Shown one piece after another: positions 2,208 to 50,422 of a DNA stretch of 64,000 bases. The notes below the pieces were generated by a model. It made no database searches, was not told the DNA's origin, and saw only the letters and a list, made by a program, of their open reading frames with translations. Numbering within the stretch: the stretch's first letter is position 1; each line of letters opens with the position of its first letter. The DNA comes from Bacteroidales bacterium (lineage in GTDB: Bacteria; Bacteroidota; Bacteroidia; Bacteroidales; JAAYJT01), in NCBI GenBank assembly GCA_014860575.1, contig JACZJK010000040.1, forward strand, positions 34,082 to 98,081, written 5' to 3'. Position numbers and translations under genes: made by a program.

Positions 2208-2316
2208 AGCCTTCCGGAATTAAGATGAAACCTTTGCGACAATTACAAAAACGTTGCTTACAAAAGTAGGGATAATATTTCAAGCTTTATTGGGTGGTGC
2301 GATCACCAAAAAATGA

Positions 2317-2433
2317 CTGCCTCAAGAAGTTAATTCTTGTCATCCTGAACGAAGTGATGGATCTGAACTATCTTGATATTCTTCGATGCGTTCAGGATGA
2401 CAAAAAAAAGTAAAACCACTAGTTTTAAGGCAG
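2317..2433. repeat. nested palindromic intergenic element, copy A (core TGTCATCCTGAACGAAG...CGTTCAGGATGACA)
   Basis: Outer arms are ctgcctcaa / ttaaggcag and the inner arms are a 20-bp imperfect inverted repeat at 2338-2402. T-runs flank both sides. The same architecture occurs at 26062-26195, 29138-29270 and 51193-51279. Confidence 0.9.
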
Positions 2434-2458
2434 CCTTTTTTGAAAATACTTTCTCAGT

Positions 2459-4381
2459 TTATCGCACCATTACCTTTTGGTTTGAAGTCCCTGCTTCGGA
2501 TTCAATTTGCAGATGATACATGCCAGGTGTAAGTCCATTTGTGTTGATGTTGATAGTTTTATCATTAACCAATGTGGAAATTACAAGTTGCCCGGTACTA
2601 TTGAAAACCTTAATCTCCCTGATGTTGCGATTGGCCTGAACGTGCAGGAAACCGGTCGCAGGATTCGGGTACACCATTACCGCATTGGGTTCGCCAAGTG
2701 CGTTGATTCCGATATAATAATCAAACGTTACCGGAACTTCAATGATGAAGTTATCCGGATCGTTGCTTTCAATTAACAAATATGCGTAATAGGCTTTTAT
2801 TTCCAGACCTGCCGAATTGAAAGTCACTGTAACAATATCCTCTGCCATCGGCTCAACTATGCCTGATTCCGGGCTTACAGAAAGCCAGCTTAGAGCTTGG
2901 TAAGTAATAACATTTTCTTCTGGACTTGTGCTTTCTACGTATTCAATATTTATATAATAGGACAACGGGCCTTCACCTATATTACCTATAGTCATTTCCT
3001 GTGTCTCAATCTGGTTTGGTACGATTTGTTGCATCAATTCGCCAGGGTTAACTACAATTGTAGGTGGCAGGAAATAAGAAACAATAAGTGTCGCTGGAAC
3101 ACTGACTGTTGGATTGCCGGGATCATTGCTTGTTATCTGAAGAACAGCTTCGTAATCGCCATAATCCAGGCCTGTTGCATCAAAAGTAACCATTACATCC
3201 AGGGTTTGTCCGGCACCAACGGTTCCGGTAGAAATAGCTGTATAGAGCCAATCATCGGGTGGAGGAGTGATCGCAATGATTTCATATCCGAAAATTTTGT
3301 TAGGTTCTCCTTGTGTACAACCACCAAGGGTTATTGTACCTTCAAAAAGGTCGGGATAAATCCATAAACCACCTGCAAGATGTTGCGCTCCATGTTCGCC
3401 ACTAATACTGTGTGATACGCCGGTGAGCGTTCCATCAGGCATGGTCATCTGCTCAACCTGGCAGCCCAGATCCGTAATTGTTCCAGTAAAGAGCCACATA
3501 TAAGGGCCGCCTGGTGATAGCTCATCATATGCAATGCCGTAACAACTTGGAGTTGTTGGTCCTACCAGAAGAATAGTACCTGTACGGCTTACCAGCGTTA
3601 AAGCTGTTGACCAGTTATTGACCCAAAATCCATCTGCTGCCTCATCGTACGCAATTGCCCTTACTGCACCGGTATAGGGAATAGTGCTTACAAGTACTTC
3701 GTTCACGAAATCCATCTTCCATATGCCTGTATTAGCTACTGCATTGCTGCCATAGAAAAACTCACCATCAAAAGCCAGGTCCCTGATACCAGTAACTCCA
3801 GGGATTGTGAATGTTTCAATAAAAGTTCCATCAAGGGCGAATTTATTTATTGACGGGCCAATCCAAACTGCTGTATAGATATATTCGCCATCGGTTTCAC
3901 TACCGGCGTGGTTTGACATAGCTGAAGATGTTTGCACATCATACACAAATTGCAGGTCCCACATCGCAAGTGTGTTTTCCACTTCACGAGGTGTTGCTGA
4001 AGGATCGGTTTCTGCATTGGCAGTGTTGCCGTATGCAAAGTCAAGTTCGAGGAAATGGTATTGTTGTTTCTGTCCTCTTTTGCCAATAAAGTCAATCTCG
4101 ATAGTAAAATTAAGATCATCTTCGCCAATGTTGCTGATTGACAAAACCTGAACTGATGCGGCGTTTGGCTCGAGCACTTCCGAGAGGGCAGTGGGGTTTA
4201 CAGAAATTTCGGGGTCAAGACGATCGTAGGCAGCTGCACAAGCAAGATTGTCATCAACCATAAGCACGTGATTCAATTCATGTGAAGACGCTGTGATCCC
4301 GGTAGCTTGTGCGAGCCATTGCGCAACTGATTGCAAACTAATAGCAATTATTGCGCTAAACAGAAGTACTTTCTTTATCAT
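2459..4381 (-). CDS. T9SS-sorted secreted protein, function unknown
   Basis: ORF 2459-4414, trimmed to the Met that starts the signal peptide MIKKVLLFSAIIAISLQSVAQ. C-terminal VYPNPATGFLHVQ...GMYHLQIE is a T9SS CTD. The last ~130 aa are paralogous to the neighbour 4611-6446. Confidence 0.75.
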   Translation of the reverse strand: MIKKVLLFSAIIAISLQSVAQWLAQATGITASSHELNHVLMVDDNLACAAAYDRLDPEISVNPTALSEVLEPNAASVQVLSISNIGEDDLNFTIEIDFIGKRGQKQQYHFLELDFAYGNTANAETDPSATPREVENTLAMWDLQFVYDVQTSSAMSNHAGSETDGEYIYTAVWIGPSINKFALDGTFIETFTIPGVTGIRDLAFDGEFFYGSNAVANTGIWKMDFVNEVLVSTIPYTGAVRAIAYDEAADGFWVNNWSTALTLVSRTGTILLVGPTTPSCYGIAYDELSPGGPYMWLFTGTITDLGCQVEQMTMPDGTLTGVSHSISGEHGAQHLAGGLWIYPDLFEGTITLGGCTQGEPNKIFGYEIIAITPPPDDWLYTAISTGTVGAGQTLDVMVTFDATGLDYGDYEAVLQITSNDPGNPTVSVPATLIVSYFLPPTIVVNPGELMQQIVPNQIETQEMTIGNIGEGPLSYYINIEYVESTSPEENVITYQALSWLSVSPESGIVEPMAEDIVTVTFNSAGLEIKAYYAYLLIESNDPDNFIIEVPVTFDYYIGINALGEPNAVMVYPNPATGFLHVQANRNIREIKVFNSTGQLVISTLVNDKTININTNGLTPGMYHLQIESEAGTSNQKVMVR

Positions 4382-4551
4382 TAGGTTTATTTTGCCACAC
4401 CTGAGTACTAACACAAAGCAAATGTAATAATAATTGGTTGGGTTAGTTTTGATCGATGATAAAATTAATGATTATCAAGCAATTCTAAGTCAATATTATC
4501 GAATCCTATAGATCTCTTCAATATTGGCCTTCTAAGCTCTTTGCACCACAT

Positions 4552-34387: not shown

Positions 34388-34553
34388 GGTTCCAGGTTCC
34401 AAGTTCAAAGCCCCAAGCCCCAAGACATAAGGAACAAGACACAAGACCAATAACCAGCAACCAGTAACCAGCAACCAGCAACCCGTAACCAGCAACCAGT
34501 AACCAGCAACCAGCAACCAGTAACCAGCAACCCGTAACCAGTAACCAGCAACC
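34388..34553 (+). repeat. 166-nt array with strict 7-nt period filling the whole nupC-thyA spacer
   Basis: There are 9 drifting units: ggttcca x2, agttcaa, agcccca x2, agacata, aggaaca, agacaca, agaccaa. Then 14 YAACCAG units and a partial unit run to the thyA ATG. Confidence 0.95.
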
Positions 34554-35345
34554 ATGCACCAATACCTCAAACTTCTTGATCATATTTTAAAGAACGGAGT
34601 CAGTAAAAGCGACCGCACAGGCACAGGAACCTTAAGTGTGTTTGGTTACCAGATGCGGTTCGACCTGGGCAAAGGTTTCCCGGTTCTTACCACCAAAAAA
34701 CTTCACCTGAAGTCAATCATTTATGAATTGTTATGGTTTTTGAACGGGGATACCAATATAAGGTACCTTAACGACCACGGAGTAAATATCTGGAATGAAT
34801 GGGCCGATGCAAATGGCGATCTGGGTCCTGTTTATGGCAAGCAATGGCGAAGCTGGCAGGCTGAAAATAAAGTTATTGACCAGATTTCGGAAGTAATTGT
34901 GCTTATCAAAAACAACCCCGATTCACGCAGGATGATCATCAGCGCCTGGAATGTTGCGGAATTGGAAAGGATGGCTTTGCAACCCTGCCATGTCCTGTTT
35001 CAGTTTTATGTGGCGGGCAACAAGCTTTCGTGCCAGCTTTACCAGCGCAGCGCCGATGTTTTCCTTGGCGTTCCGTTCAATATTGCATCTTATGCCTTGC
35101 TTACAATGATGATTGCCCAGGTCACCGGATTAGAGGCCGGAGAGTTTATTCACACTTTTGGCGATGCTCATCTTTATCTGAACCATCTCGACCAGGCAAG
35201 GCTTCAACTTACTCGCGAACCCAGAAATCTGCCTCAGATGCTTATCAACCCCGATGTAAAAGATATTTTTGAATTTAAATTTGAAGATTTCCAGCTTACC
35301 GGTTACGATCCCCATCCGCATATCAAAGCCAGTGTTGCAATTTGA
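34554..35345 (+). CDS. thyA: thymidylate synthase
   Basis: 263 aa. DRTGTGT.S.FG, the catalytic Cys in [13 protein letters not shown], and [19 protein letters not shown] are present. Confidence 0.97.
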
Positions 35346-38210: not shown

Positions 38211-38226
38211 TGGTTCGAAGTTTGCA
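38211..38226 (+). promoter_or_regulatory. candidate sigma-54 promoter (TGGTTCG-aagt-TTGCA)
   Basis: GG-N10-GC spacing is canonical, with 10/12 core matches to TGGCACG-N4-TTGC. It lies 40 nt upstream of the ATG at 38266. Confidence 0.4.
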
Positions 38227-38265: not shown

Positions 38266-38556
38266 ATGTTAAATTATCACGAACCAGTTGAAGAACTCAG
38301 CAAGGAAACCAGAGATTTTTCGAGGGCTTTGGTAAGTCTGAAAGAAGAAATTGAAGCCATTGATTGGTATCAGCAACGCATTGATGCTGCCGGTAACGAA
38401 GACCTTAAAGCTATTTTGGAACACAACCGGGATGAAGAAATAGAACATGCCTGTATGACCCTGGAATGGCTAAGACGTAACATGCCAGGGTGGGACGGAC
38501 AGATGCGAACTTACATTTACAAAGAAGGAGAGATTATAAGTAAGGAACAGGTTTAG
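38266..38556 (+). CDS. encapsulated-ferritin (EncFtn)-like ferroxidase, lacking cargo-loading peptide
   Basis: 96 aa. HEPVEEL, LKEEIEAIDWYQQR and NRDEEIEHACMTLEWLRRN match EncFtn metal-site motifs. The C-terminus YKEGEIISKEQV has no targeting peptide. Confidence 0.7.
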   Translation: MLNYHEPVEELSKETRDFSRALVSLKEEIEAIDWYQQRIDAAGNEDLKAILEHNRDEEIEHACMTLEWLRRNMPGWDGQMRTYIYKEGEIISKEQV

Positions 38557-38742
38557 CCAGAAATCACCAGTAATCTGGAAATAGGGACACTAAAATAATT
38601 CGTAAAGGACCTTCTCTCTATTTGGCTTCGACTTCCAGGGATGATATCAGGTATTGTAGAGATTTCTACACAACTCAATATATCTGTTGGGGAAATTTTG
38701 CAACCTACGGCTTTGAAAATTGTTTCTTTAAAAACTACCACG

Positions 38743-39897
38743 ATGGACAATATAACTATTGACAAATTCAAAGAACTAGCAACAGTTCACGAACCTCATT
38801 GCATTAGCATATTTATCCCGGCCCACAAAGCCGGGCAGGAAGTGAATCAAATGCTTGATAAGAAGAATATGAAAAATCAGGTAAAGCGTGTTCGCGCTCG
38901 GCTCGAATCGTACAAGCTTAAAAACCAGGAAATAGACAAGATTCTTCAGCCAGTAGTTAAACTGGTTGAAAACAATGGGTTCTGGAAACAGCAGTCAAAC
39001 GGCTTGGCGGTATTCAGAAATGCTAGTCTCTTTCATTACTTTACATTACCTGTTGAGTTCGAAGAAAATATTTATGTAGCGGATCATTTTAATCTTAAAC
39101 CTTTGATGCCTTATTTGAATGATAATGGCAGATTTTATATTCTTTCACTAAGCCTGGGAAGTGTCAAATTATTTGAGTGCCATCCTCACCGGATCGAAGA
39201 ATTAGTGCTAGGGGAGATGCTTCCTAAAAATATGGAAGAGGTTGTAGGTTCTGATATGAAAGAAAAGAACCTTCAGTTCCGTACTGGTCAGACAGGCACA
39301 AACCAGGCATTGTTTCATGGCCACGGAGCTGGCAAAGAAGATGGGAAAGAAGAAATCATTAAGTATTTCAGGGCTATAAATGAAGGAGTGTTGAAGGTTC
39401 TGCAGCAGAAGAGCGATCCGCTTATTGTTGCCGCGGTTGACTTCCTTGTGCCTTTGTATCGTGAAGTAAATGCTTATAAAAATCTGGAAAACGAATTTAT
39501 TGCAGGCAATCCTGAACATGAGCAGCCAACGCTGCTTCATGAAAAAGCGAGGCTTTTACTTAAGGATTATTTCAACAGCCGTAGAAAAGAAAAGTCTACG
39601 GCGTTTGAACAGGCAATCTCAAATGAAAAGGCATCCGTTAATGCAGCGGACATAATCCCTGCAGCAGTGCACCAGCGGATTGATACCTTATTCATCTGTA
39701 AGGGCAGCGAGATGTGGGGAACATTTGATGAGGCCAACAATGAGATTAATATTCAGGATAAGATAGCTGAGCAGAGTGTGTGCTTACTGAATATGGCTGC
39801 TGTGAACACAATACTGAACAATGGCACTGTGTTTTTTATGGATCCGGAGAAGATGCCTGATCCCAATACTGAACTAAATGCCATCTTCAGGTTCTAA
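38743..39897 (+). CDS. uncharacterised protein, probable bacterial eRF1-like (baeRF-type) family member
   Basis: ORF 38641-39897, trimmed to MDNITIDKF (385 aa). The N-terminal HEPHCISIFIPAHKAGQEVNQ, the LQFRTGQTG...FHGHGAGKED loop and the NAIFRF terminus resemble baeRF proteins from memory. The family call is unverified. Confidence 0.45.
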   Translation: MDNITIDKFKELATVHEPHCISIFIPAHKAGQEVNQMLDKKNMKNQVKRVRARLESYKLKNQEIDKILQPVVKLVENNGFWKQQSNGLAVFRNASLFHYFTLPVEFEENIYVADHFNLKPLMPYLNDNGRFYILSLSLGSVKLFECHPHRIEELVLGEMLPKNMEEVVGSDMKEKNLQFRTGQTGTNQALFHGHGAGKEDGKEEIIKYFRAINEGVLKVLQQKSDPLIVAAVDFLVPLYREVNAYKNLENEFIAGNPEHEQPTLLHEKARLLLKDYFNSRRKEKSTAFEQAISNEKASVNAADIIPAAVHQRIDTLFICKGSEMWGTFDEANNEINIQDKIAEQSVCLLNMAAVNTILNNGTVFFMDPEKMPDPNTELNAIFRF

Positions 39898-39968: not shown

Positions 39969-41225
39969 ATGAAAAATTACAAATATATCATCATTGGCGG
40001 CGGAACTACCGCGGGATATGCAGCAAAAGAATTCGCTGAACAGGGTATTCAAAAAGGAGAGTTGTGCATCGTTTCAACTGAATCCATCCTGCCAATGAAT
40101 CGGCCACCATTTTCAAAAGGCTACCTCAGAGATGGTAAGAATACTGAGGAAATTCTGATAAAGGAAAAGGAATTTTATCTTAAAAATGGGATTGATGTAT
40201 TACTTGAAACAACTGTTAAAGCAGTGAACTTTGGACATAAAAAACTTGACTTAGGCGACGGTCAAGTACTCGGATATGAAAAATTGCTGATCGCTACCGG
40301 ATCGCAACTAAAACGACTCAATATTGAAGGCAAAGATTTGGATAATGTTTTTTACCTCAGGAGCATTAAGCAATCCGACAACATAAGAGAACAAGCCGCT
40401 AAGGCTCAAGAAGTAGTTGTTGTGGGAGGAGGCTATATTGGCACTGAAACGGCAGCTTCTCTAAATCAAATGGGCCTTGATGTGACCCTTGTATTACCTG
40501 AAGAAAGACTGCTTTCAAAATTTGCATCGGCAGATATTGCTGCATTTTTTCAGAATGCGTTCGAGAAAAAAGGAGTGAATCTGGTATTTCGCGAAAGCGT
40601 AATAAAATTTCATGGAAATGAAAAAGTTGAATCGGTAGAACTTACATCTGGCAAAATGTTGGAAACTGATATGGTTGTGGCTGGCATTGGTGTGAGACCC
40701 AACATCAATATCTTTGAGAACTCCGGCCTTAACATTAACAAGGGCATTGTAGTAAATGAATTCTGCGAAACCAATATTGAAAATGTATATGCTGCCGGTG
40801 ATGTCGTTGAATTTCCTGATTTGATTTTTGGGAAAATTAAAATTATTCAACATTGGGAACATGCCTTTGAACAAGGGCCTCATGCTATAAGGGTGATGAC
40901 CGGTAAGCGGGAACCATATGTTTTCCTTCCATTCTTTTTTTCCGATGTTTTTGAGTATTCCTATGAATTTTTCGGTGACACCGAAGATGCTGATGAGGTA
41001 TTCAACAGAGGCAATCTGGAAACCGGCGATTTCAGCACCTGGTGGTTCAAGGGCGACAGGCTGGTAGCCGCCTTTATAATGAGTTCGCGTCCTGAAGAAG
41101 AAGGTAAGTTAGCCCGTGAATGGATCACCAACAAGAGAGATGTTGATAAAGTTAAAATCATGGATAGCGGTTCTGAAATGAATAAACTCGTTGTAAATAC
41201 CGGTTTGTATGAAAATGAATTTTGA
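39969..41225 (+). CDS. FAD/NAD(P)-dependent oxidoreductase, monodehydroascorbate-reductase/ferredoxin-reductase-like
   Basis: 418 aa. The two Rossmann motifs are IIGGGTTAGYAA and VVGGGYIGTE. N-terminal YKYIIIGGGTTAGYAAKEFAEQGIQKGEL and C-terminal LPFFFSDVFEYSYEFFGD are colinear with plant MDHAR as I recall it. Confidence 0.7.
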   Translation: MKNYKYIIIGGGTTAGYAAKEFAEQGIQKGELCIVSTESILPMNRPPFSKGYLRDGKNTEEILIKEKEFYLKNGIDVLLETTVKAVNFGHKKLDLGDGQVLGYEKLLIATGSQLKRLNIEGKDLDNVFYLRSIKQSDNIREQAAKAQEVVVVGGGYIGTETAASLNQMGLDVTLVLPEERLLSKFASADIAAFFQNAFEKKGVNLVFRESVIKFHGNEKVESVELTSGKMLETDMVVAGIGVRPNINIFENSGLNINKGIVVNEFCETNIENVYAAGDVVEFPDLIFGKIKIIQHWEHAFEQGPHAIRVMTGKREPYVFLPFFFSDVFEYSYEFFGDTEDADEVFNRGNLETGDFSTWWFKGDRLVAAFIMSSRPEEEGKLAREWITNKRDVDKVKIMDSGSEMNKLVVNTGLYENEF

Positions 41226-41347: not shown

Positions 41348-41791
41348 ATGAGTAAACATTATGCAAATGCCAGTTGGAACAAGACCCTTGTACAGGGCAA
41401 CGGAAACTTCAGGCTCAAAACCAGTGGATATGAAGGCAGCCTCAAATTTTCTTCGCGTTTTGAGGATAATAAGGATGCGTCGAGTCCTGAGGAATTAATA
41501 GGTGCAGCCCATGCAAGTTGCTTTTCAATGGCGCTTGCCCACGCCCTCGACAAAGCCGGTTTCAAACCCGTAAAGATAGAAACCGAGGCCGTAGTTACGC
41601 TTGCCAAAACAGGAGATTCTTTTTCTATAACCGAAATCCTGCTTAAGACCAAAGGCAACGTTCCTGCTATTCATAAATATAAATTTGAAGAAATCGCTAA
41701 AGATGCCAAGGAGAATTGCCCGGTATCAAAAGCGCTGAATTCAATAAATATAGTGTTGGAGGCTGAGCTAATCGTTGCTAAAGATACCTAG
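41348..41791 (+). CDS. osmC: OsmC-family peroxiredoxin
   Basis: 147 aa. EELIGAAHASCFSMALA and the second Cys in KENCPVSKAL are present. Confidence 0.85.
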   Translation: MSKHYANASWNKTLVQGNGNFRLKTSGYEGSLKFSSRFEDNKDASSPEELIGAAHASCFSMALAHALDKAGFKPVKIETEAVVTLAKTGDSFSITEILLKTKGNVPAIHKYKFEEIAKDAKENCPVSKALNSINIVLEAELIVAKDT

Positions 41792-41892: not shown

Positions 41893-42708
41893 TTATTCCG
41901 GTTTTCTTGCAACACTCAATAGATGTTTTGCTTGGTTAACCATGTGAATATCCTCGCAATGTTTAATAATGAAATTCATCCAGGGCTTTTTGAGATCCTC
42001 ATCAAGCTGATGATATAATTCAAAGCGCTCACCAAAAATGCCTTCGACCCCTGCCAGGTGCAGGGGTTCGAAGCCAGTTTGCTCCATGAGTACGTTCACC
42101 TCTTCGGGATGTACGAAGTATGCATTCGTAAACAACTCGGTATCTTCCACGAAACGATCATCCGATCCGGTTTCCCAAAGTTTTTTAGCTCCATCAGGAT
42201 AGCGCACGCCCATCGGATTATGTTTCAAACCATAAATCATTGCGCAAATTCGGGTCATAAAGGAAGAGAAAACGAACCCACCCGGTTTGAGATGTTGAAA
42301 GGCCAAATCAAGAACCTTCAATCGCTTCTCTTTACTGATCAAATGATACAAAGGGCCAAGAATAAGAATCCCATCCCATTGTTTATGATCCCATTTTTTA
42401 CTATCCAAAGCATCCGACCGGTTAATGAAAAGCAAATTCCCGTGGCTGTTCAAACGTTGCTTCACAAGCTTTATATTGTTGTCTGACAAATCATTGAGCC
42501 CCAGTGAATATCCCTTGTTCAGCAGTATCTCAGCTATGCGTCCCGTTCCACACGCTACATCAAAAATTGAATCTCCGGGTTTGAGGTATTTATTCACAAA
42601 ATGCATGGTTACCGGAATCTCAAAAGGATGTTCATCGAGGCGGGCATCTTCGTCCTTAACATGTTCATTGTAATAGTCCCTTACCTTGTTTTCAGTTTGT
42701 TTCGGCAT
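41893..42708 (-). CDS. class I SAM-dependent methyltransferase
   Basis: 271 aa with motif I DVACGTGRIAE and motif post-I/II spacing. Confidence 0.75.
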   Translation of the reverse strand: MPKQTENKVRDYYNEHVKDEDARLDEHPFEIPVTMHFVNKYLKPGDSIFDVACGTGRIAEILLNKGYSLGLNDLSDNNIKLVKQRLNSHGNLLFINRSDALDSKKWDHKQWDGILILGPLYHLISKEKRLKVLDLAFQHLKPGGFVFSSFMTRICAMIYGLKHNPMGVRYPDGAKKLWETGSDDRFVEDTELFTNAYFVHPEEVNVLMEQTGFEPLHLAGVEGIFGERFELYHQLDEDLKKPWMNFIIKHCEDIHMVNQAKHLLSVARKPE

Positions 42709-42886: not shown

Positions 42887-43204
42887 TTACAAATTTTGAG
42901 AGTAATTATCTGTTTTCCATTTATCATCCTTGATTTCTCTTTCAGCCTGTAACCAATTTTCCATTTCAGAATTGGCTGCATTGTCTTTCTCATGAGAAAT
43001 CTGATGAGCTCTTTGGCGAATTTTTTCCTCTAAATCCACCTGATGTTCGCCGGTTGGAAATACACTCTCAGCAGTTGTATCCTTGTTGCCACTTTTCTTT
43101 TTCGAACCAGTTGGTTGCTTAGTAGGTTTCATTGCCTTTGATTGTGTATCTGCGACGGATGGTTTTTGTGAAGCGGATTTTGTAGCATTTGATTTGCGTT
43201 CCAT
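42887..43204 (-). CDS. DUF2934-like small basic protein
   Basis: 105 aa with a disordered K/S/T-rich N-terminus. The C-terminal IRQRAHQIS......NWLQAERE matches the DUF2934 pattern. Confidence 0.6.
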   Translation of the reverse strand: MERKSNATKSASQKPSVADTQSKAMKPTKQPTGSKKKSGNKDTTAESVFPTGEHQVDLEEKIRQRAHQISHEKDNAANSEMENWLQAEREIKDDKWKTDNYSQNL

Positions 43205-43593
43205 ATGAATAAGGATTTAGTGTTAATTTGTAAGATCATTGATGTTAATGATTTCTGCTTCCTTTGGAGAAATCCATTATCTCCTTATGGTAGGAAAGAC
43301 AAATGTTATACCAACCAAAATTATTAATAAGAAGATAAAAGATGTAATTGTTCGGTAAGCATTGTTTACAGCAAAATCGCTGTTTATCTATTAAACAGTG
43401 CTTGTATTGGATGATCACTATTGTGGATTTCCCGGCTAAAATGTAGAAGCAACGCTACATTTCAGTAATAAAGTGAATTTCATTTATGCCAGGAAAGCAA
43501 GGGAAGAATACCAGATAATGCCTGTGTATAACATTTGCTGATTACTGGGGCATATCTTATCCACTATAAAAACCTGGGGTTATTGCAGGATAT

Positions 43594-44343
43594 TTACATT
43601 AGCCTGTTTCGCTGATAATATTCTGATAGTTCATGTTCATACGACATTTCGATCGGCTGGTCAGAATCATAATCCGGAGCGTCTTTGATTGTATCAGTAG
43701 TCAGATTTATTTTGACTTCCCGGTTCGCATAGCTGATTTCTTTCATCCAGTCAACGGCAAGCATTACCTTTTTGCTCCATGGCAGCCAATTGCTTGTATC
43801 CACAATCAGGTATACAAGCTGCCAATCGGCATCGTCAACAATAAGGTCTTCAACGTGGCCGAGGGTATCATCAGTTGCCCGGATATTATATCCTTCAACA
43901 TCCTTGAAACTTCTGAGACTTGAATTCATAGCTTTCTCACTGATTTGTTTATTTTTGGGCACGTTCAGTGGCCTGGCCGGAAAATATGCACCTGAAGGCA
44001 AAGGAGGAACATACCCTGCACCCCAATACATCGGATAGCCATAATGTTCGTAAAGCTTCTGTTCGTATTCACGCGAAATTGTTGGTATTTCAGCCGGCGC
44101 GGGACTGAGTCCGATCTTTTCTTTTGAGGTATTCAATAGAATTTGATTATTCTCCCAATTTGGGTTAATGATAACATCAACCGGCAATATGACTCTTTTG
44201 TCGTTAAAGAAACCTCCGAAGTCAGCCTCAAGATATCTGACTGCCCAGTTGTCTTCATCAAAAAGGAAATCCTTAATTTTCCCTTCCATTCCATCATTTG
44301 TTTCAATGGAATAACCTATTAGATTTTTCAAACTGTGTTTCAT
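43594..44343 (-). CDS. PRC-barrel domain protein (two barrels)
   Basis: 249 aa. The pattern L.GY.I...D...G.V.D...D...W.V.YL occurs twice. Confidence 0.7.
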   Translation of the reverse strand: MKHSLKNLIGYSIETNDGMEGKIKDFLFDEDNWAVRYLEADFGGFFNDKRVILPVDVIINPNWENNQILLNTSKEKIGLSPAPAEIPTISREYEQKLYEHYGYPMYWGAGYVPPLPSGAYFPARPLNVPKNKQISEKAMNSSLRSFKDVEGYNIRATDDTLGHVEDLIVDDADWQLVYLIVDTSNWLPWSKKVMLAVDWMKEISYANREVKINLTTDTIKDAPDYDSDQPIEMSYEHELSEYYQRNRLM

Positions 44344-44465
44344 TGTATTACGATTTTAGGTTTATGAAATTTATTTTGATTGAGTAAAATCAGGTTTCAA
44401 CGCTTGTGAATGATTGCTGATGAGAAAGGTTTATAGTTATCAGTCATTCATTTTTGTCGCAAACC

Positions 44466-45017
44466 TCATTCGTCTTTCGGTCTTAAGTAGGAAATGATAT
44501 GGTCTGCAAAATTCGAAACATCTTCCGCACCCATGGCCGTAATAAAGTTGTTGTCATTTGCAACGCTGTTGCCCTGGTAATCGGCTCCGGCATTGATCAT
44601 ATCCGTTTTTATAGCATGGTGTGCAGTCATTTTCCTGTTTTTTACCAGGTCTGCTTCTATCAGTAATTGTGGTCCATGACAAATTGCAGCAATCAGTTTC
44701 TTTTCCGCATTAAATTTCTTAACAATCTCAATTGCTGCTTTATTTCTCCTTAAACGATCTGAATTGATAACACCGCCCGGCAAAATGAGCGCATCGTATC
44801 TGCTGGGATCTGCATCATCAATCAGGGCATCCGACTTAAAATCTCGACCCCATTGTTTTTTATTCCATGATTTTAGCAGGGAACCTTCGGCAAGTATATG
44901 AACTGTGAAACCATGTTTTTCAAGTTCTTCTTTAGGAACCGTTAGTTCAACTTCTTCAAATCCATCGGTTGCCATGATAGCAACACTTATTTCTTTCAAG
45001 TTTTCTTGTTTTGTCAT
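44466..45017 (-). CDS. DJ-1/PfpI-family (type 1 glutamine amidotransferase-like) stress protein
   Basis: ORF 44466-45092, trimmed to MTKQENLKEISVAIMATDGFE. The nucleophile elbow AAICHGP is present. Confidence 0.8.
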   Translation of the reverse strand: MTKQENLKEISVAIMATDGFEEVELTVPKEELEKHGFTVHILAEGSLLKSWNKKQWGRDFKSDALIDDADPSRYDALILPGGVINSDRLRRNKAAIEIVKKFNAEKKLIAAICHGPQLLIEADLVKNRKMTAHHAIKTDMINAGADYQGNSVANDNNFITAMGAEDVSNFADHIISYLRPKDE

Positions 45018-45249
45018 ATATGATTGAATGCTTTCTTTGACGGGTAATGAAATAATCATTCCAAAGCTCGCCAACTTGCCATTGTACGACATGTGCCAAT
45101 AATTACAGCGTATTCGGCCAAGTTCTCAGAAAATAAAATGAGATTCGCCCATTAAATGATGTAAGAAGAATAAACACCCCTAAAGACTGGTATCATAAAA
45201 AAGAGAAAATTATTTCAGTGTAAAAGGTTTGCCACGATTCACACAATTC

Positions 45250-45270
45250 AATGTTGAAACATTTCTACAA
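45250..45270. promoter_or_regulatory. dyad AATGTTGAAAcatTTCTACAA (arms TGTTGA-N6-TCTACA), candidate activator site
   Basis: 18/21 identical to 49414-49434. It lies 95 nt upstream of the sigma-54-like element at 45365. A second TGTTGAAA sits 22 nt downstream (45274-45281). Confidence 0.45.
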
Positions 45271-45364
45271 GAGTGTTGAAAATAGTATTCAACTCCACAT
45301 AATCTTTTCCGGCAACAGTTAAATAGAGCAGACTTCCATAGAGTTAAAGTCGCTTTAGGATTTA

Positions 45365-45379
45365 TGGCACGGTTTTGCA
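45365..45379 (+). promoter_or_regulatory. sigma-54-like element TGGCACG-gtt-TTGCA (spacing one nt short)
   Basis: Both half-sites are perfect consensus, but GG-to-GC spacing is 9 nt rather than 10. It lies 38 nt upstream of the dodecin ATG. Confidence 0.35.
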
Positions 45380-45416
45380 ACAAAGCCTGAAAGTATTAAC
45401 CAAAAAAGTAGAAATT

Positions 45417-45620
45417 ATGAAAATGGTAAAAGTAATTGAAGTTATAGCTTCATCGGATAAAGGTTTTTCTGAAGCAACTCAAAATGCTGTAGATGAAGCC
45501 GGGAAAACCTTAAAGAACATCAAATCAATCTATATTAAGCATATGCATGCAAACGTTGAAAACAACCGGATTGTGTCCTATGCTGTGAATGCAAAGATTT
45601 CTTTCGAGATTGAGAAATAG
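45417..45620 (+). CDS. dodecin-family flavin-binding protein
   Basis: ORF 45375-45620 (TTG), trimmed to the ATG at 45417 (67 aa). VKVIEVIASSDKGFSEATQNAV......NIKSIYIK is the typical dodecin pattern. Confidence 0.75.
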   Translation: MKMVKVIEVIASSDKGFSEATQNAVDEAGKTLKNIKSIYIKHMHANVENNRIVSYAVNAKISFEIEK

Positions 45621-45662
45621 AACTTAGCTTTGGGCTGAGGGCTTGGGGCTTGGAGCTTGTTT
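45621..45662 (-). repeat. 6-unit array, 7-nt period (CTTGGGG-type on + strand = CCCCAAG on - strand)
   Basis: Units read aacttag/ctttggg/ctgaggg/cttgggg/cttggag/cttgttt. The array occupies the entire 40-nt gap between two convergent stop codons. The unit type matches 34409-34424. Confidence 0.85.
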
Positions 45663-47001
45663 AAAGTTCAATCCCAAACCGGCGGAGCTTATTATAAAGT
45701 GTTTTTCTGTCAATGTTTAATAATTTGGCGGCTTCTGATTTGTTATAGTTCGCTTCTTTTAGCGCTCTTTCAACCACCAGCTTCTCTGCTTTTTCAGTAG
45801 CATCTTTAAGATCAAGATATGCATCATTCGATTCATCAGTATGATCTGATTCTTCTTGATGTGTGCTTAATTCCAAAGGCAAACAGCTTAGGTCAACGAC
45901 TGAATTGCGGGTCACAAGTACACTGCGTTTTACTACATTGCGCAATTCGCGAAGATTACCATACCAAGAGTATTTTTTAAATACAGTAGCCACCTCATCG
46001 TCGAAACCTGTCACTTCCTTTTTTAAATCGCGGTTAGCCTCTTTAATAAAGTGATTTGCGAAAATTAAAATATCATCGCCACGTTTACGAAGCGGAGGAA
46101 GCTCAAGTTTAAATTCGTTGATCCTGTGATAAAGGTCTTCACGAAAGTTCCCATTGCCTGATGCTTTCAATAAATCGCTGTTGGATGCTGAAATTATGCG
46201 AACATCAACATCAATAGTCTTGCTGTCGCCTACGCGGGTAATTACCTTATGCTGAATTGCCCGTAATAATTTTACCTGGGTTTCGTAGGTAAGGTTGCCA
46301 ATCTCGTCAAGAAAAATGGTACCGCCATTGGCTTGTTCAAAGTATCCCGATTTATCGGATATTGCACCGGTAAAGGAACCTTTTATATGACCGAAAAGCT
46401 CACTGGCTGCAAGTTCGCGGGGTATGGCACCACAGTCAATAGCCATGAATTTTTTATTCTTGCGGCTGCTGTTTTGATGGATTAACCTGGCTATATATTC
46501 TTTTCCAGAACCGGTTTCACCCTGTATCAACACCGACATATCTGTTGGAGCCACCAGCCTAGCCTGGTCAATCACCTCAAGCATTTTGGTACTTTCACCA
46601 GTAATAAAAACATCTTCAGTTGCTACCTGATTACTTACTTTTACCTTGATGGCACGCCTTATTGTATTGCTTATCTCTTCAGGTTGAATAGGTTTGGTAA
46701 CATAATCAAAAGCTCCGGCCTTTATGCTTTCAACTGCTGCCCGAATTTCGGCATAAGCTGTCATCATAATAACCATTGTATCAGGCGATCCCTGGCGGAT
46801 AAATAACAAGAGTTCTGTTCCATTGATGTCAGGCAAGCGTATATCGCACAAAACAACATCAATTCGCTCAGCGTTTAGAATTTTAAGTGCCGGTTTTCCT
46901 CTTGAAGAAGTAAAAATCTGATATCCTTCTTTCTTAAAATAGTTTTCTAGCAAATTAACAATAAAAGGATCATCGTCTATAATTAATATTGAGGTTTTCA
47001 T
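45661..47001 (-). CDS. sigma-54-dependent response regulator (NtrC family)
   Basis: 446 aa. REC domain, then an AAA+ domain with Walker A GETGSGKE and the GAFTGA-type loop GSFTGA, then a C-terminal Fis-type HTH AAKLLNIDRKTLYNKL. Confidence 0.92.
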   Translation of the reverse strand: MKTSILIIDDDPFIVNLLENYFKKEGYQIFTSSRGKPALKILNAERIDVVLCDIRLPDINGTELLLFIRQGSPDTMVIMMTAYAEIRAAVESIKAGAFDYVTKPIQPEEISNTIRRAIKVKVSNQVATEDVFITGESTKMLEVIDQARLVAPTDMSVLIQGETGSGKEYIARLIHQNSSRKNKKFMAIDCGAIPRELAASELFGHIKGSFTGAISDKSGYFEQANGGTIFLDEIGNLTYETQVKLLRAIQHKVITRVGDSKTIDVDVRIISASNSDLLKASGNGNFREDLYHRINEFKLELPPLRKRGDDILIFANHFIKEANRDLKKEVTGFDDEVATVFKKYSWYGNLRELRNVVKRSVLVTRNSVVDLSCLPLELSTHQEESDHTDESNDAYLDLKDATEKAEKLVVERALKEANYNKSEAAKLLNIDRKTLYNKLRRFGIEL

Positions 47002-47064
47002 TGCCAGGGTTATTAAAAGTTTATTTGTAAAGGTAATACTATAATTGCCATAATAGTTTTTAAA

Positions 47065-49353
47065 TCAACGCATTTCATTTCTGGCCTTTCGTATAACTGC
47101 TATTCCCGCCTCTATTTTACTCATCGCATTTTCAATAAGAACAGGATCGTGGCTGGATACATTCCTTAAATATCGGTTTTCTATTGCTTTAAGCAGTGAA
47201 GTGGCTTCTATAAAACCTAACTGCTCGAAGGCGGGTGCAAGACGATGGGCCGCTTCAGCAATAGATTGGTAATCATTGTCTGCGAATGATTTTTTTATTT
47301 TTTGCAATAGGGTTTCTCCATTATCAAGAAAAGTGTTGAACATTAAAATTATAAATTCTGTATTCCCTTTGGCGATTTTAAACAATTCACTCAAGTCAAA
47401 TTCTGAAGCCCCTTTTAATTTTGGTATGCTTGCATGAACGCATGAGGCTGCATCGTCCGTGTTATTCGAATGGATCAGGATTTTTTCATAAAATTCATCT
47501 TCTTTGAAAGGTTTAAGTATTACGTCGTCCATACCTGCTTGTATATACTGTTCTATATGCCTTCTAAGCACATTGGCAGTCATAGCTATGATAACTGAAG
47601 GTCGGTGGTTTTTGAACTTACTCTCTATGTTTCTGAAATGCAGGGCAACATCAATACCGCTTGTGCCAGGCATATTGATGTCGAGAAAAACCAGGTGATA
47701 GCGACCCGGGATGAATAGTTTGATTGCTTCTTCGCCTGATGAGGCAAAATCGCCCTTGATCTTATTGTTGCTAAGGATCACGCTTCCCAGCAGGCGGTTC
47801 GCAGGATCGTCGTCAACAAAAAGAACATTGACATGACTGAGCGAAATCCGTGGCAATGAGGTTTTTTTGTTCCGAATTTGATTGTATGGTTTGGTTGGCC
47901 TCTTGAATGTAAGTGAAAACGAAAAAGTTGAACCTTCACCCAACCGGCTTTTAACGCTAATTGAACCACCCATGGATTCAACAAGATTCTTGCTGATTGT
48001 AAGACCCAAACCTGAACCAAAGTAATTGCGGCTGATAGAGCCATCACCCTGCTGAAAGGGATTAAATATCCTTTCAAAATTCTCTGGTGCGATACCAATC
48101 CCGGTATCCGTAATTTCAAAAAGCAATGTTAGTTCCTCAAGGCTGGCACTAATGGTTGAGCAACCGAGCGTTACACTTCCTTTTTGGGTGAACTTTAGAG
48201 CGTTGTTTAAAAGATTGATGAGAACCTGCCGGAGTTTGGCAGGATCACCACACAATACTTCATCCAAAGATAGATCTGAATGGATTTGAAAGTCCAGGTT
48301 CTTCTTTTTTTGCCGGACTTCAAGTACATCGGTTACAGCATTAATCACTTCTGAAAGCCTAAATGGTTCATCTTCTACTTCAATCTGGCCTGCTTCAATC
48401 TTTGATAGAATGAGGATATCGTCAATTAATGATAGCAGATGCTGTGATGAATTCTTCACCACATCCATATAAGAGGATTGTTTTTTTGAGAGTTTAGTTC
48501 TCCCCAACTGATCAGTAAAACCAATGATTGCATTGAGTGGCGTTCTGATTTCATGCGACATCTGTGCTACAAAATTGCTTTTGGCCTTATTGGCAGCCTC
48601 TGCTTCTTCTTTTGATAGCTTTAACTTGTTTTCTACAATCTTGGTTTCAGTTATATTCTGCAGAATAATTACACACAAATTCTGATTTTCATAATCTAGC
48701 AAGGGCGTTAGTTGCACTGAATAAAAGTGAGTTCCATGATTGAATTCCCTGCTCACAGATGTGCCATCAAAAGCTATTTCGAGAAGTGGCAGCAGTACGT
48801 CAATAATACTCTGTGGAAGCCGGTTCAAAAGATTTGTAGTTTCGCTGTGAACAGAAAACTTTTTACGTTTCCATCTCTCATCCCCAACACTGCACTGTAT
48901 CTCCATACTCTTATTAACCAGCAACATCATGAGGCCGGGAACATTTTCAGCCAGGATTTTGTAATAGTGCAGTTTATTAAGTTGTCGCTCATTTTGTTCA
49001 AGAGCCTCGTCCAACAAAAAACCCGATTCAATATATCTGAAAGTAACATGATCCTGTACATGTTCAAGTATGCTGAACTTGGATATCAGCTTAACAGTTT
49101 TGCCATTGTTGCCTAAGTGCTCGATCAACTGTACAAAGAACCCTTTTTCCTCCTTTTGCAGGATCCGGCTTAAATGCTTCGCAATTTGGCTTTCGTTAGC
49201 AGGTACAATGCTACGTATGGATCTGCCGATCAGTTCTTCAGCCGTTGTATAGCCCAACTGTTGAACCGCAGATGCATTGATTTTACTTATTTTCCACTCT
49301 GAATCATAAACGATCACCGGGTTGGGTAATACTTCAAGATCCATGTGTCTCAT
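47065..49353 (-). CDS. hybrid sensor histidine kinase (PAS-PAS-HisKA-HATPase-REC-HPt)
   Basis: 762 aa. H-box SHEIRTPLNAI, N/G boxes NLLNNALKFT, DTGIGI and GSGLGL, a receiver with FLDINMPG, and a C-terminal HPt AHRLAPAFEQLG. Confidence 0.9.
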   Translation of the reverse strand: MRHMDLEVLPNPVIVYDSEWKISKINASAVQQLGYTTAEELIGRSIRSIVPANESQIAKHLSRILQKEEKGFFVQLIEHLGNNGKTVKLISKFSILEHVQDHVTFRYIESGFLLDEALEQNERQLNKLHYYKILAENVPGLMMLLVNKSMEIQCSVGDERWKRKKFSVHSETTNLLNRLPQSIIDVLLPLLEIAFDGTSVSREFNHGTHFYSVQLTPLLDYENQNLCVIILQNITETKIVENKLKLSKEEAEAANKAKSNFVAQMSHEIRTPLNAIIGFTDQLGRTKLSKKQSSYMDVVKNSSQHLLSLIDDILILSKIEAGQIEVEDEPFRLSEVINAVTDVLEVRQKKKNLDFQIHSDLSLDEVLCGDPAKLRQVLINLLNNALKFTQKGSVTLGCSTISASLEELTLLFEITDTGIGIAPENFERIFNPFQQGDGSISRNYFGSGLGLTISKNLVESMGGSISVKSRLGEGSTFSFSLTFKRPTKPYNQIRNKKTSLPRISLSHVNVLFVDDDPANRLLGSVILSNNKIKGDFASSGEEAIKLFIPGRYHLVFLDINMPGTSGIDVALHFRNIESKFKNHRPSVIIAMTANVLRRHIEQYIQAGMDDVILKPFKEDEFYEKILIHSNNTDDAASCVHASIPKLKGASEFDLSELFKIAKGNTEFIILMFNTFLDNGETLLQKIKKSFADNDYQSIAEAAHRLAPAFEQLGFIEATSLLKAIENRYLRNVSSHDPVLIENAMSKIEAGIAVIRKARNEMR

Positions 49354-49413
49354 AATAGAAGTCCTTCAGGGAAAATAACACTCTGCACTATTGCCTCGCT
49401 ATATTAACCCGTG

Positions 49414-49434
49414 AATGTTGAAATTGTTCTACAA
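49414..49434. promoter_or_regulatory. dyad AATGTTGAAAttgTTCTACAA, second copy of the 45250 motif
   Basis: It lies 85 nt upstream of the sigma-54-like element at 49519 and 61 nt upstream of the kinase ATG on the other strand. Confidence 0.45.
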
Positions 49435-49518
49435 AAAGCATCATCACTCATTATAAAAACCAGATTTAACACACAGGTATAGAGCAATCTACATACGTTG
49501 TGAACAAATCATTTTATG

Positions 49519-49534
49519 TGGTACAATATTAGCA
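49519..49534 (+). promoter_or_regulatory. candidate sigma-54 promoter (TGGTACA-atat-TAGCA)
   Basis: Canonical GG-N10-GC spacing with three mismatches to the consensus. It lies 34 nt upstream of the USP ATG. Confidence 0.4.
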
Positions 49535-49567
49535 GCTATTATATCAACACGTTTTAAATATAAATTC

Positions 49568-50422
49568 ATGGACTTGAAGAATATACTAATTCTAACAGAG
49601 CTTGACGCATTATCAGCAAAGGTTACCGGTTTTGCAATCAATCTGGCCGTACAAATGAGTATTCCGGAAATAGTGCTTTTAAATGTGATCATACCGGCAA
49701 ATACCCCGGCTTTTTCAGCATCAGGTGATGTTTTTACGTCTGAAGGAAATATGGCCGACCATTTCAATCTGGCTTTGTTGGAAAAGCACCAGCGACTTGT
49801 GAATGAAGAAGCAGCCAGGCTCACAAATGAAATGGTTCAGGTAAAACCAATTGTAAGATTTAATAACAGCAAAACCGATCTGAACGGATATATGGAAGAA
49901 TTTCAGGCTGGATTATTAGTGTGTGGCAGCCGGGATGAAAACACTTTTCTGGAAAAGCTTTTTGGTTCAGATAGGGAAAAGATCATCAGAAAGGTTGATT
50001 ATCCTGTGATTTTCTTAAAAGAGGATACAGATACCGACGAAATAAATAACATACTTGTGGCCATTGATATTGACGAAGAAGATCAAAGCGGCCTGAAAGA
50101 AATAGTAGGTTTTGCCCATGCCCTCAAGGCAAGGATGCAACTACTTCATGTGCTTACTGATGAAGCCAACTCATCGGAATATGCCATTGAAAGACTACGT
50201 ACTCTGGCAATTAAAAATATGTTTGGCCATTACGATATCAATGTGGTGAATAACGATAGCCTCGAAAACGGAATTCGCAACTTCGTGAGGAAAAATAACC
50301 CGGAAATGATTGCCGTGCTATCGCAGGGGAAAGGAAAGATCAAAAAATTGATCTTCGGCAGCAACACCAACAATATCATTAAAGAATCGGACAAACCGGT
50401 TTTTGTGAGTAAGCTAAACTAA
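49568..50422 (+). CDS. universal stress protein, tandem Usp domains
   Basis: 284 aa. Two Usp-like halves each end in a G..G... motif (LLVCGSRDEN, IAVLSQGKGKIKKLIFGSN). Confidence 0.8.
   Translation: MDLKNILILTELDALSAKVTGFAINLAVQMSIPEIVLLNVIIPANTPAFSASGDVFTSEGNMADHFNLALLEKHQRLVNEEAARLTNEMVQVKPIVRFNNSKTDLNGYMEEFQAGLLVCGSRDENTFLEKLFGSDREKIIRKVDYPVIFLKEDTDTDEINNILVAIDIDEEDQSGLKEIVGFAHALKARMQLLHVLTDEANSSEYAIERLRTLAIKNMFGHYDINVVNNDSLENGIRNFVRKNNPEMIAVLSQGKGKIKKLIFGSNTNNIIKESDKPVFVSKLN

Follow-up and report, generated by a model that had tools for sequence, protein, structure and literature searches.

A truncated encapsulin ferritin upstream of a predicted Balon-family factor in an uncultured Bacteroidales bacterium: the probable remains of a clade-specific encapsulin operon

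The question raised by the locus described here is why a ferritin of the encapsulated type (EncFtn) should stand without an encapsulin shell and directly ahead of a gene resembling a translation factor. The locus belongs to an uncultured Bacteroidales bacterium, probably of anaerobic lifestyle (NCBI GenBank assembly GCA_014860575.1, contig JACZJK010000040.1, positions 34,082 to 98,081 of the forward strand; this whole stretch of 64,000 nucleotides is referred to as the window). The initial annotation described a 96-aa EncFtn open reading frame (ORF) and an eRF1-like (baeRF-type) gene on the same strand, followed by a flavoprotein resembling monodehydroascorbate reductase (MDHAR) and by OsmC, and all four genes were recovered in that arrangement (Table 1). 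The operon most likely runs, as far as its sequence indicates, from a sigma-54-type promoter through the EncFtn ferroxidase, a Balon-family factor and the MDHAR-like flavin reductase to the OsmC peroxidase. With reasonable confidence, we read it as a decayed, clade-specific encapsulin operon, a co-regulated stress unit joining iron detoxification, translational shutdown and peroxide defence.

The identity of the 96-aa ORF agrees with the first description: it matches PF22277 (EncFtn-like; E=2.6e-42, 142.9 bits, cutoff 27) and TIGR04535 (141.1 bits, cutoff 125), and aligns to residues 8-96 of the R. rubrum EncFtn 5da5 (E=2.4e-30) and to 3k6c (NE0167; E=1.3e-28). The alignment to 5da5 shows conservation of E27/E28/E30/W34 at the entry site and of E58/H61 as ferroxidase ligands; the R. 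rubrum ferroxidase residues Glu32/Glu62/His65 correspond to E28/E58/H61 and its entry site Glu31/Glu34/Trp38 to E27/E30/W34, all of them invariant in an 8-sequence EncFtn alignment. The TIGR04535 profile is covered only at positions 1-91 of 114, positions 92-114 being unmatched, so the C-terminal tail is absent from the ORF. The absence of a cargo-loading peptide (CLP), reported initially, therefore holds for the translated protein, but the peptide is still encoded in frame: past the TAG, the reading continues as P-E-I-T-S-N-L-E-I-G-T-L-K-TAA, and SNLEIGTLK, found only behind the stop, is a canonical CLP. The closest relative, L001 (a JGI contig of 303 kb; baeRF 81% identical, gene order as in the window), encodes an EncFtn of 110 aa ending in ...QAEFESNLEIGTLK before its stop codon, and a CAG of L001 stands opposite the window's TAG in the DNA alignment. 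The motif L(E/N/Q)IGTLK is also the C-terminus of the shell-adjacent EncFtns of L005, L007, L008, L167, L170 and L172. Contigs assembled separately from two runs, SRR12686320 and SRR12686319, match the window at 100% identity for 13.4 and 5.4 kb; the 96-aa product is called on both and the TAG is present in both, so that this codon is no one-off error. Recoding or read-through of the TAG was rejected as the default, TAG being an ordinary stop that terminates 8 of the 38 long ORFs of the window, with no tRNA gene found within these 64 kb.

The shell gene is missing as well. No HK97-fold shell occurs in the window, as had been noted: a hidden Markov model (HMM) of 7 neighbouring shells, run on the full set of 428 stop-to-stop ORFs, reached no better than E=0.41, tblastn with the 7 shells as queries gave only E>2, and none of about 45 window ORFs had a Pfam match to Linocin_M18. 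The relatives were collected by a baeRF-profile scan with one genome per species, which gave 80 loci whose neighbours were tabulated by tblastn; L167, L168 and L170/171 were found by look-ups starting from shell proteins. In L005, L007 and L008 (baeRF 59-60% identical), EncFtn, shell, baeRF and flavoprotein follow each other on one strand, an order likewise found in L167, L168 and L170/171. L004, L024 and L037 carry baeRF-flavoprotein with the EncFtn-shell pair on the opposite strand 3-5 kb off, and in L025 this pair lies 5 kb upstream. The window and L001 have a common spacer without the shell which, from a dyad onward, is homologous to the region just past the shell stop in L005 and L007. 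Because the relatives keep the shell between the genes and the window keeps the CLP behind the TAG, the ferritin is secondarily shell-less; judged from these comparisons, this state is recent, and the claim of an intrinsically shell-less ferritin had to be given up.

L172 (JGI 3300076002, Ga0645779_18865; positions 1152-4413) presents the reciprocal of the window arrangement, the shell being kept and the Balon-like gene absent: an EncFtn with CLP, a shell, the flavoprotein and OsmC are present without baeRF, and synteny with the window extends over both flanks (80%, 73% and 79.5% DNA identity). Most simply, these sequences suggest that both modules were present in an ancestor and that one or the other was lost in its descendants.

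Other variants of the module were seen in single loci. In L167 (7042-9525), baeRF and flavoprotein are each called as several short ORFs, with EncFtn, shell and OsmC unbroken, a pattern that may reflect either pseudogenisation or assembly frameshift errors. The EncFtn of L025 (3964-5045) ends in ...EITKIETE without an LxIGxL peptide, and the shell gene starts 12 nt later, placing a tail-less ferritin beside a shell. A 382-aa protein of a Bacteroidales metagenome-assembled genome (P0156) has an EncFtn domain joined directly to a family-1 shell (…ITSIEENENNVTELGDNEPGEIKSIKINT-MDLLKKNLAPI…); it may be either a true fusion in a bacterium or the product of a stop codon missing from a single assembly. 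A 2021 encapsulin survey describes all Flp-fusion encapsulins as archaeal.

Table 1 Features of the EncFtn locus and of the putative regulators encoded nearby (positions within the window).
Feature	Position	Strand	Evidence or context
Sigma-54-type promoter element TGGTTCGAAGTTTGCA	38211-38226	+	55 nt upstream of EncFtn ATG
EncFtn core, 96 aa, ending at premature TAG	38266-38556	+	PF22277, TIGR04535
Premature stop TAG, CAG (Gln) in the closest relative L001	38554-38556	+	DNA alignment, codon table
In-frame linker and cargo-loading peptide remnant, ancestral TAA stop	38557-38598	+	L001 alignment
Perfect dyad TGTAGA-gatt-TCTACA, TGT-N10-ACA arrangement	38655-38670	.	Conserved block with L001
TTGG-N9-GCA element, sigma-54-like	38687-38702	+	Spacing one base short
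Balon-family protein (bacterial aeRF1-like, Pfam baeRF_family7/3), 384 aa	38743-39897	+	Pfam, NCBIfam, predicted structure
MDHAR-like FAD/NAD(P)H oxidoreductase (Pyr_redox_2 + Reductase_C)	39969-41225	+	Pfam, PDB sequence matches
OsmC-family peroxiredoxin	41348-41791	+	TIGR03562
NtrC-type sigma-54 enhancer-binding response regulator	45661-47001	-	Pfam Response_reg + Sigma54_activat + HTH_8
PAS hybrid histidine kinase	47065-49353	-	Pfam PAS + HisKA + HATPase_c + Response_reg + Hpt

The strongest competitor of the decayed-operon reading is that the ferritin still works with an encapsulin encoded in trans, whose shell would take up the full-length (L001-type) EncFtn, the window strain being a very recent loss-of-docking mutant or its TAG being leaky, which we consider possible, if on balance doubtful. 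Across its nine codons, the CLP shows 5 synonymous and 0 non-synonymous changes between the window and L001 although both lineages are without an adjacent shell, which suggests that the docking peptide stayed under purifying selection after the shell left the operon, and points to a trans-encoded shell, at any rate until recently. The EncFtn core of the window shows, in the 8-sequence alignment, no excess of lineage-specific amino-acid changes, and BfrB of M. tuberculosis has been proposed as an encapsulin cargo whose gene stands apart from the shell operon (PMC8346489). Against a shell in trans, none is encoded in the 64 kb analysed, and none of the best 120 of 1450 shell homologues came from a contig matching that of L001 or of the window in length (302,948 and 98,562), a result that is not conclusive; against a leaky TAG stand its normal use as a stop and the lack of a tRNA gene within the window.

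Whether the truncated ferritin still functions bears on a further alternative, namely that the EncFtn ORF is a functionless pseudogene in the making upstream of a functional Balon-flavoprotein-OsmC unit. The shell is gone and the docking peptide cut off, an EncFtn alone cannot store iron, and L003, L006 and L009 have the baeRF-flavoprotein unit without EncFtn. We nevertheless hold this reading to be unlikely: the 96-codon core is intact with all its metal ligands, the promoter is conserved, and in other lineages short EncFtns without a CLP have naturally been kept. The core differs from L001 by 15 synonymous and 14 non-synonymous changes, and a rough estimate from these difference counts puts its dN/dS at about 0.3. 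Its 96 aa are also the length of the R. rubrum 1-96 construct, which crystallised as an iron-bound decamer with a ferroxidase centre (PMC5012862), and the close similarity to that construct suggests an annular decamer with ferroxidase activity. Without a shell, EncFtns oxidise iron and do not store it (PMC11202242 and PMC8346489). The 96-aa core is probably an active soluble ferroxidase; it could also be heading for loss. EncFtn genes without a targeting peptide and with no shell within 6 kb were seen at L150:3598-3876 (92 aa) and L155:217-504 (95 aa), that of L150 coming after genes for a sigma-54 enhancer-binding protein and for a response regulator and before a patatin-like lipase.

The second gene of the operon encodes a protein of the baeRF/eRF1 fold, as the initial annotation had proposed. 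Its longest reading begins at 38641; the ATG at 38743, 186 nt past the TAG, was taken as the start, because nearly all homologues share a length of 384-386 aa and begin with MD(H/N)I..., which makes the protein 384 aa long. It matches the Pfam families baeRF_family7 (E=2.8e-46, 157.7 bits, cutoff 27.2) and baeRF_family3 (E=4.7e-35, 121.9 bits), and its sole NCBIfam match, over the full length, is the 'AOC03_06830 family ribosome hibernation factor' (NF052287; 124.9 bits, equivalog cutoff 330). The sole significant sequence match in the PDB is Balon of Psychrobacter urativorans (8rd8 chain B; phmmer E=9.4e-6); a profile of 41 family sequences matched 8rd8_B over residues 7-374 (E=5.2e-27), and hhalign gave 99% probability over 342 columns. 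The AlphaFold2 model, built on the family alignment (pLDDT 86.4, pTM 0.77, with the loop 172-197 below pLDDT 50), has the three-domain aeRF1/Pelota fold, and Foldseek ranked three Balon entries on top (TM 0.69-0.74), then Msmeg1130 and Rv2629, then aRF1/eRF1/Pelota. Two C-terminal strands (325-329 and 334-338) are predicted in the region aligned with Balon; in Balon, a beta-hairpin insertion of the C-terminal domain contacts EF-Tu. The best Pfam family of Balon itself is baeRF_family3.

The statement that baeRF proteins lack experimental characterisation was overtaken by work of 2024, which showed hibernation factors among them: Balon, Rv2629 and Msmeg1130 attach to the A site of the ribosome with EF-Tu, inhibit translation and carry neither NIKS nor GGQ (Helena-Bueno et al., Nature 2024, PMC10901736), and Balon is the top sequence and fold match here. 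In the family of the window protein, NIKS occurs in 0 of 41 members and GGQ in 2, neither motif being present in the window protein. In the broad sense of that paper, in which a 'Balon homologue' is defined by iterated HMMER membership (PMC10901736), the 384-aa protein would qualify as one, and on sequence and model it is a predicted ribosomal A-site hibernation factor. A role of this protein as encapsulin cargo was rejected, its C-terminus reading ...LNAIFRF (consensus ...LNALxRY) without an LxIGxL-type peptide.

The middle-domain (M-domain) loop of the protein invites another interpretation, that it is a catalytically active rescue factor, a peptidyl-tRNA hydrolase or a Vms1-like enzyme, acting through this loop. 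Vms1-type factors use GSQ/TAQ variants. The loop is unusually conserved for a baeRF, L177 and H192-G193 being invariant and Q178 present in 40 of the 41 members, and Q178 and H192-G193 are not found in Balon; two members have a GGQ tripeptide somewhere in their sequence, and a few baeRF families that keep a conserved Gln could be active (Burroughs and Aravind, PMC6514570). The TGQ to which attention had been drawn initially does lie inside the disordered loop at the GGQ position, but its equivalence to GGQ does not follow: G182/Q183, read as (S/T)-G-Q, are kept in only 28 of 41 members, Q183 being replaced in 13 (by H, N, I, K and S among others), and hhalign places GAG opposite the GGS of Balon. 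A catalytic TGQ is therefore possible but unlikely. With the loop modelled at pLDDT <50 and the closest solved relatives (Balon, Rv2629 and Msmeg1130) being non-catalytic, an active rescue factor seems to us a rather poor prospect compared to a hibernation factor.

Within the clade, the most constant partner of baeRF is the MDHAR-like flavoprotein, not the ferritin. Among solved structures it is closest to plant monodehydroascorbate reductases (E=1.5e-72), followed by putidaredoxin and rubredoxin reductases, and it lies directly downstream of baeRF in 16 of the 25 loci with a baeRF at least 48% identical, and in 0 of the more distant loci. The two genes form a tight pair with gaps of 17-373 nt, with or without EncFtn and shell (window, L001-L024, L037, L168, L170). 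The neighbour lists retrieved from the Balon paper show no such partner; in that paper, Balon-type genes are found in stress operons with OsmC among the common neighbours (PMC10901736). The OsmC of the window reaches 159.7 bits against TIGR03562 (cutoff 85.8) and is syntenic in L001, L005, L006, L009, L014, L167 and L172.

The ferritin association was examined from the EncFtn side by a metagenome scan, whose listed matches are all at most 76% identical and include neither L001 nor the window population. Among these matches, a shell lies directly downstream in 71 of 80 EncFtn loci, 7 more ending too soon, and baeRF is nearby in a single one; therefore, the association is specific to one Bacteroidales clade. 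Most baeRF relatives in the 80-locus table are in turn without EncFtn. The conservation of the gene pair thus stands in part: EncFtn and baeRF are neighbours in a Bacteroidales clade, but make up no tight two-gene unit. An intrinsically shell-less EncFtn in a dedicated pair with an eRF1-like quality-control factor, handling for example iron or oxidation together with ribosome rescue, is highly improbable, for while the genes are adjacent in the window and L001, EncFtn is within 10 kb of baeRF in about 10 related loci and natural CLP-less, shell-less EncFtns exist (L150, L155 and PDB 3k6c, 's-FLP'), beyond the window population (L085/L086) and L001/L002 a shell intervenes or the encapsulin pair lies on the opposite strand 3-5 kb off, 79 of the 80 other EncFtn loci among the matches listed have no baeRF, most baeRF relatives have no EncFtn, L172 combines EncFtn and shell without baeRF, and the CLP loss of the window stems from a nonsense codon.

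An anti-phage defence role was also considered and rejected, none of the four operon proteins having a PADLOC match. A SAM-dependent methyltransferase gene conserved downstream of OsmC (41893-42708, minus strand) gave a weak, domain-level PADLOC match to mad2 (E=6.3e-15), which probably reflects generic methyltransferase similarity, because no other defence component is nearby.

The putative promoter TGGTTCGAAGTTTGCA combines a -24 GG and a -12 GC at the canonical GG-N10-GC spacing (TGG-N9-TTGCA). L001 and L172 have the identical sequence at this position, and L008 (TGGTTCGATGTTTGCA) and L170 (TGGTTCGAATTTTGCG) a nearly identical one. At least 12 of the 25 related loci have, ahead of the operon's first gene, a related TGGCA-N6-TTTTC element, compared to 0.025 expected per 260 nt; this first gene is EncFtn where present, and otherwise baeRF. 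Since in L006 and L009 the element TGGCAAGGTTTTTTCA, which precedes EncFtn in L005 and L007, stands directly ahead of baeRF, the comparison argues for the encapsulin module being a cassette that was put in or taken out behind a single promoter.

The spacer between EncFtn and baeRF contains the palindrome and the TTGG-N9-GCA element reported initially, both of which were found. A 27-nt block around the dyad is invariant between the window and L001, with diverging flanks. Related dyads, TGT(A/G)GA-N4-6-T(C/A/G)(T/C)ACA, occur just past the shell gene in L005, L007, L167, L170 and L172, and in other loci also about 70-140 nt upstream of sigma-54-type promoters; in the window, the dyad is downstream of the promoter, about 17 nt before the mis-spaced second element. 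By itself, the single occurrence in the window is not above chance. The dyad is probably a site for a regulator or enhancer-binding protein (EBP), possibly for the NtrC-type EBP encoded in the window. Genes for this EBP and its neighbouring kinase (45661-49353), 6-10 kb from the promoter, are syntenic in L172, and a homologous EBP is found near the L004 island; both are candidate regulators of the operon, with a presumptive link to its promoter.

Several readings of these elements were discarded. That the dyad might be a terminator or a known RNA element was rejected: nothing terminator-like was detected between EncFtn and baeRF, and no Rfam family reached its gathering score at the dyad, the one match, at chance level, being mir-287 (19.3 versus 80 bits). 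The TTGG-N9-GCA element was rejected as a working sigma-54 promoter; it is probably degenerate, because GG-GC spans 11 rather than 12 positions and L001 has GA for GC. In L167, TGGCATATTCTTTC is found about 40 nt upstream of the baeRF ATG. A second 'island dyad', TATAGAGCAATCTACA (49478-49493, one mismatch), found upstream of a universal stress protein (Usp) gene, where this gene and that of the hybrid kinase diverge, was set aside, the three matches in the window compared to 1.67 expected being not above chance.

In the decayed-operon reading, oxidative or stationary-phase stress would lead the nearby NtrC-type activator to turn on the operon, whose genes would be co-transcribed. The 96-aa EncFtn core would form a soluble decamer that oxidises Fe(II) and cannot store the product, unlike the shell-enclosed form of the relatives; the 384-aa protein would occupy the ribosomal A site and silence or protect ribosomes without releasing peptides; and the flavoprotein and OsmC would clear oxidants. 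Ferritin and translation factor would be linked by co-regulation, and a physical partnership between them is probably not involved.

Several observations weigh against this reading. The HP decoding-centre motif of Balon is found in 0 of 41 family members (residues 16-45), its THREHP standing opposite THRAG-EV in the family; identity to Balon is only about 17-20%, and the NCBIfam score is far below the equivalog cutoff (124.9 versus 330 bits). In the middle domain, to which the lasso loop and bL27 trap of Balon belong, the loop at the GGQ/lasso position exceeds that of Balon by 11 residues. Because the HP motif is absent and this longer loop has conserved residues of its own, the contacts or even the activity of the 384-aa protein could differ from those of Balon. 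In many related loci the -12 element is TTTTC, not TTGC, and the purely synonymous CLP differences between the window and L001, neither with an adjacent shell, suggest a shell elsewhere. Finally, we infer the promoter, the operon structure and the ribosome binding from sequence comparisons.

A bolder version, that iron sequestration and ribosome hibernation are deliberately coupled in one sigma-54 regulon of anaerobic Bacteroidales, strikes us as improbable. Ribosomes of anaerobes may carry Fe(II). If the coupling were real, the EncFtn/encapsulin module would, on exposure to O2 or peroxide, remove labile Fe(II) and oxidise it, and the Balon-like factor would meanwhile protect the active centres of ribosomes from Fenton cleavage; the MDHAR-like reductase would be the redox link, and the shell-less, tail-less ferritin of this strain a free cytosolic ferroxidase that took over this task.

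Downstream of the operon, the window contains a wider stress island (42887-50422) with genes for DUF2934, a double PRC-barrel protein, DJ-1/PfpI, the sigma-54 EBP, the PAS hybrid kinase and a tandem universal stress protein, as well as a dodecin according to the L085 gene calls. The L004 locus is surrounded by a similar gene set (Usp, HSP20, CsbD, dodecin and EBP). Upstream, a tandem repeat of the 7-nt unit AACCAGC (34452-34554; 14.7 copies with 85% matches) runs as far as the start codon (34554) of a thymidylate synthase gene.

The proposal that a linkage of ferritin and translation factor is undescribed was borne out by the literature searches, which retrieved no report of it and no paper pairing encapsulin with Balon. 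Ferritin and encapsulin go unmentioned in the baeRF survey, in the Balon paper and the supplementary material searched, and in a preprint of 2025 on the evolution of hibernation factors, and at keyword level the large-scale encapsulin survey (PMC8346489) and a review of ferritin-like proteins (FLPs; PMC11202242) give no release factor among accessory genes. Taken singly, the components are of known kinds, as are Balon-type genes in stress operons with OsmC; new are the conserved presence of a Balon-family gene and an MDHAR-like reductase within Bacteroidales EncFtn encapsulin operons, the decayed variant at this locus and the distinct conserved loop of this Balon-like subfamily.

The Balon-type factor, the MDHAR-like reductase and OsmC are thereby a conserved set of candidate accessory genes of EncFtn encapsulin operons, behind a sigma-54-type promoter and unnamed as such in the literature searched, and Bacteroidota Balon-family genes are placed in a defined, probably oxidative-stress regulon, in a subfamily singled out by its highly conserved middle-domain loop. 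The loci form a natural variant series (shell and tail; EncFtn and shell joined in a called protein; shell with tail-less ferritin; tail without adjacent shell; neither), which could be used to ask what role unencapsulated EncFtn has in cells. For annotation, 'shell-less ferritin' denotes no new ferritin class here, because the state results from a missing shell gene and a nonsense codon.

Compared to known systems, the locus resembles sigma-54/NtrC systems, on the level of sequence, in its GG-N10-GC element, its TGT-N10-ACA dyad and the EBP and kinase genes nearby. The 384-aa protein shares with Balon the predicted three-domain aeRF1 architecture, homology over the full length, the absence of NIKS and GGQ and a stress-operon setting with OsmC and a universal stress protein nearby; its predicted C-terminal two-strand insertion may correspond to that of Balon. 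It differs from Balon in its best family (baeRF_family7 instead of family3), in lacking the HP motif, in the 11 additional residues of the M-domain loop and in its neighbours, which are an encapsulin module and an MDHAR-like reductase and not RaiA. The ferritin shares about 60% of the aligned residues with the EncFtn of R. rubrum (operon Rru_A0973-0974), including all ferroxidase and entry-site residues (He et al. 2016, PMC5012862). As in the family-1 EncFtn operon (Andreas & Giessen 2021, PMC8346489), the relatives of the window have the cargo directly upstream of the shell and an LxIGxLK docking peptide; unlike that operon, the window has no shell, its docking peptide lies behind a stop, and a Balon-like gene, a flavoprotein and OsmC follow. 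The window ferritin also resembles the s-FLP 3k6c (NE0167), one of the short 'non-encapsulated' EncFtn-like proteins (PMC11202242), in its length of about 95 aa, the lack of an apparent targeting peptide and a predicted decamer; unlike s-FLP, however, the window protein is short through one nonsense codon, its sister in L001 being full length and its own peptide still readable in frame.

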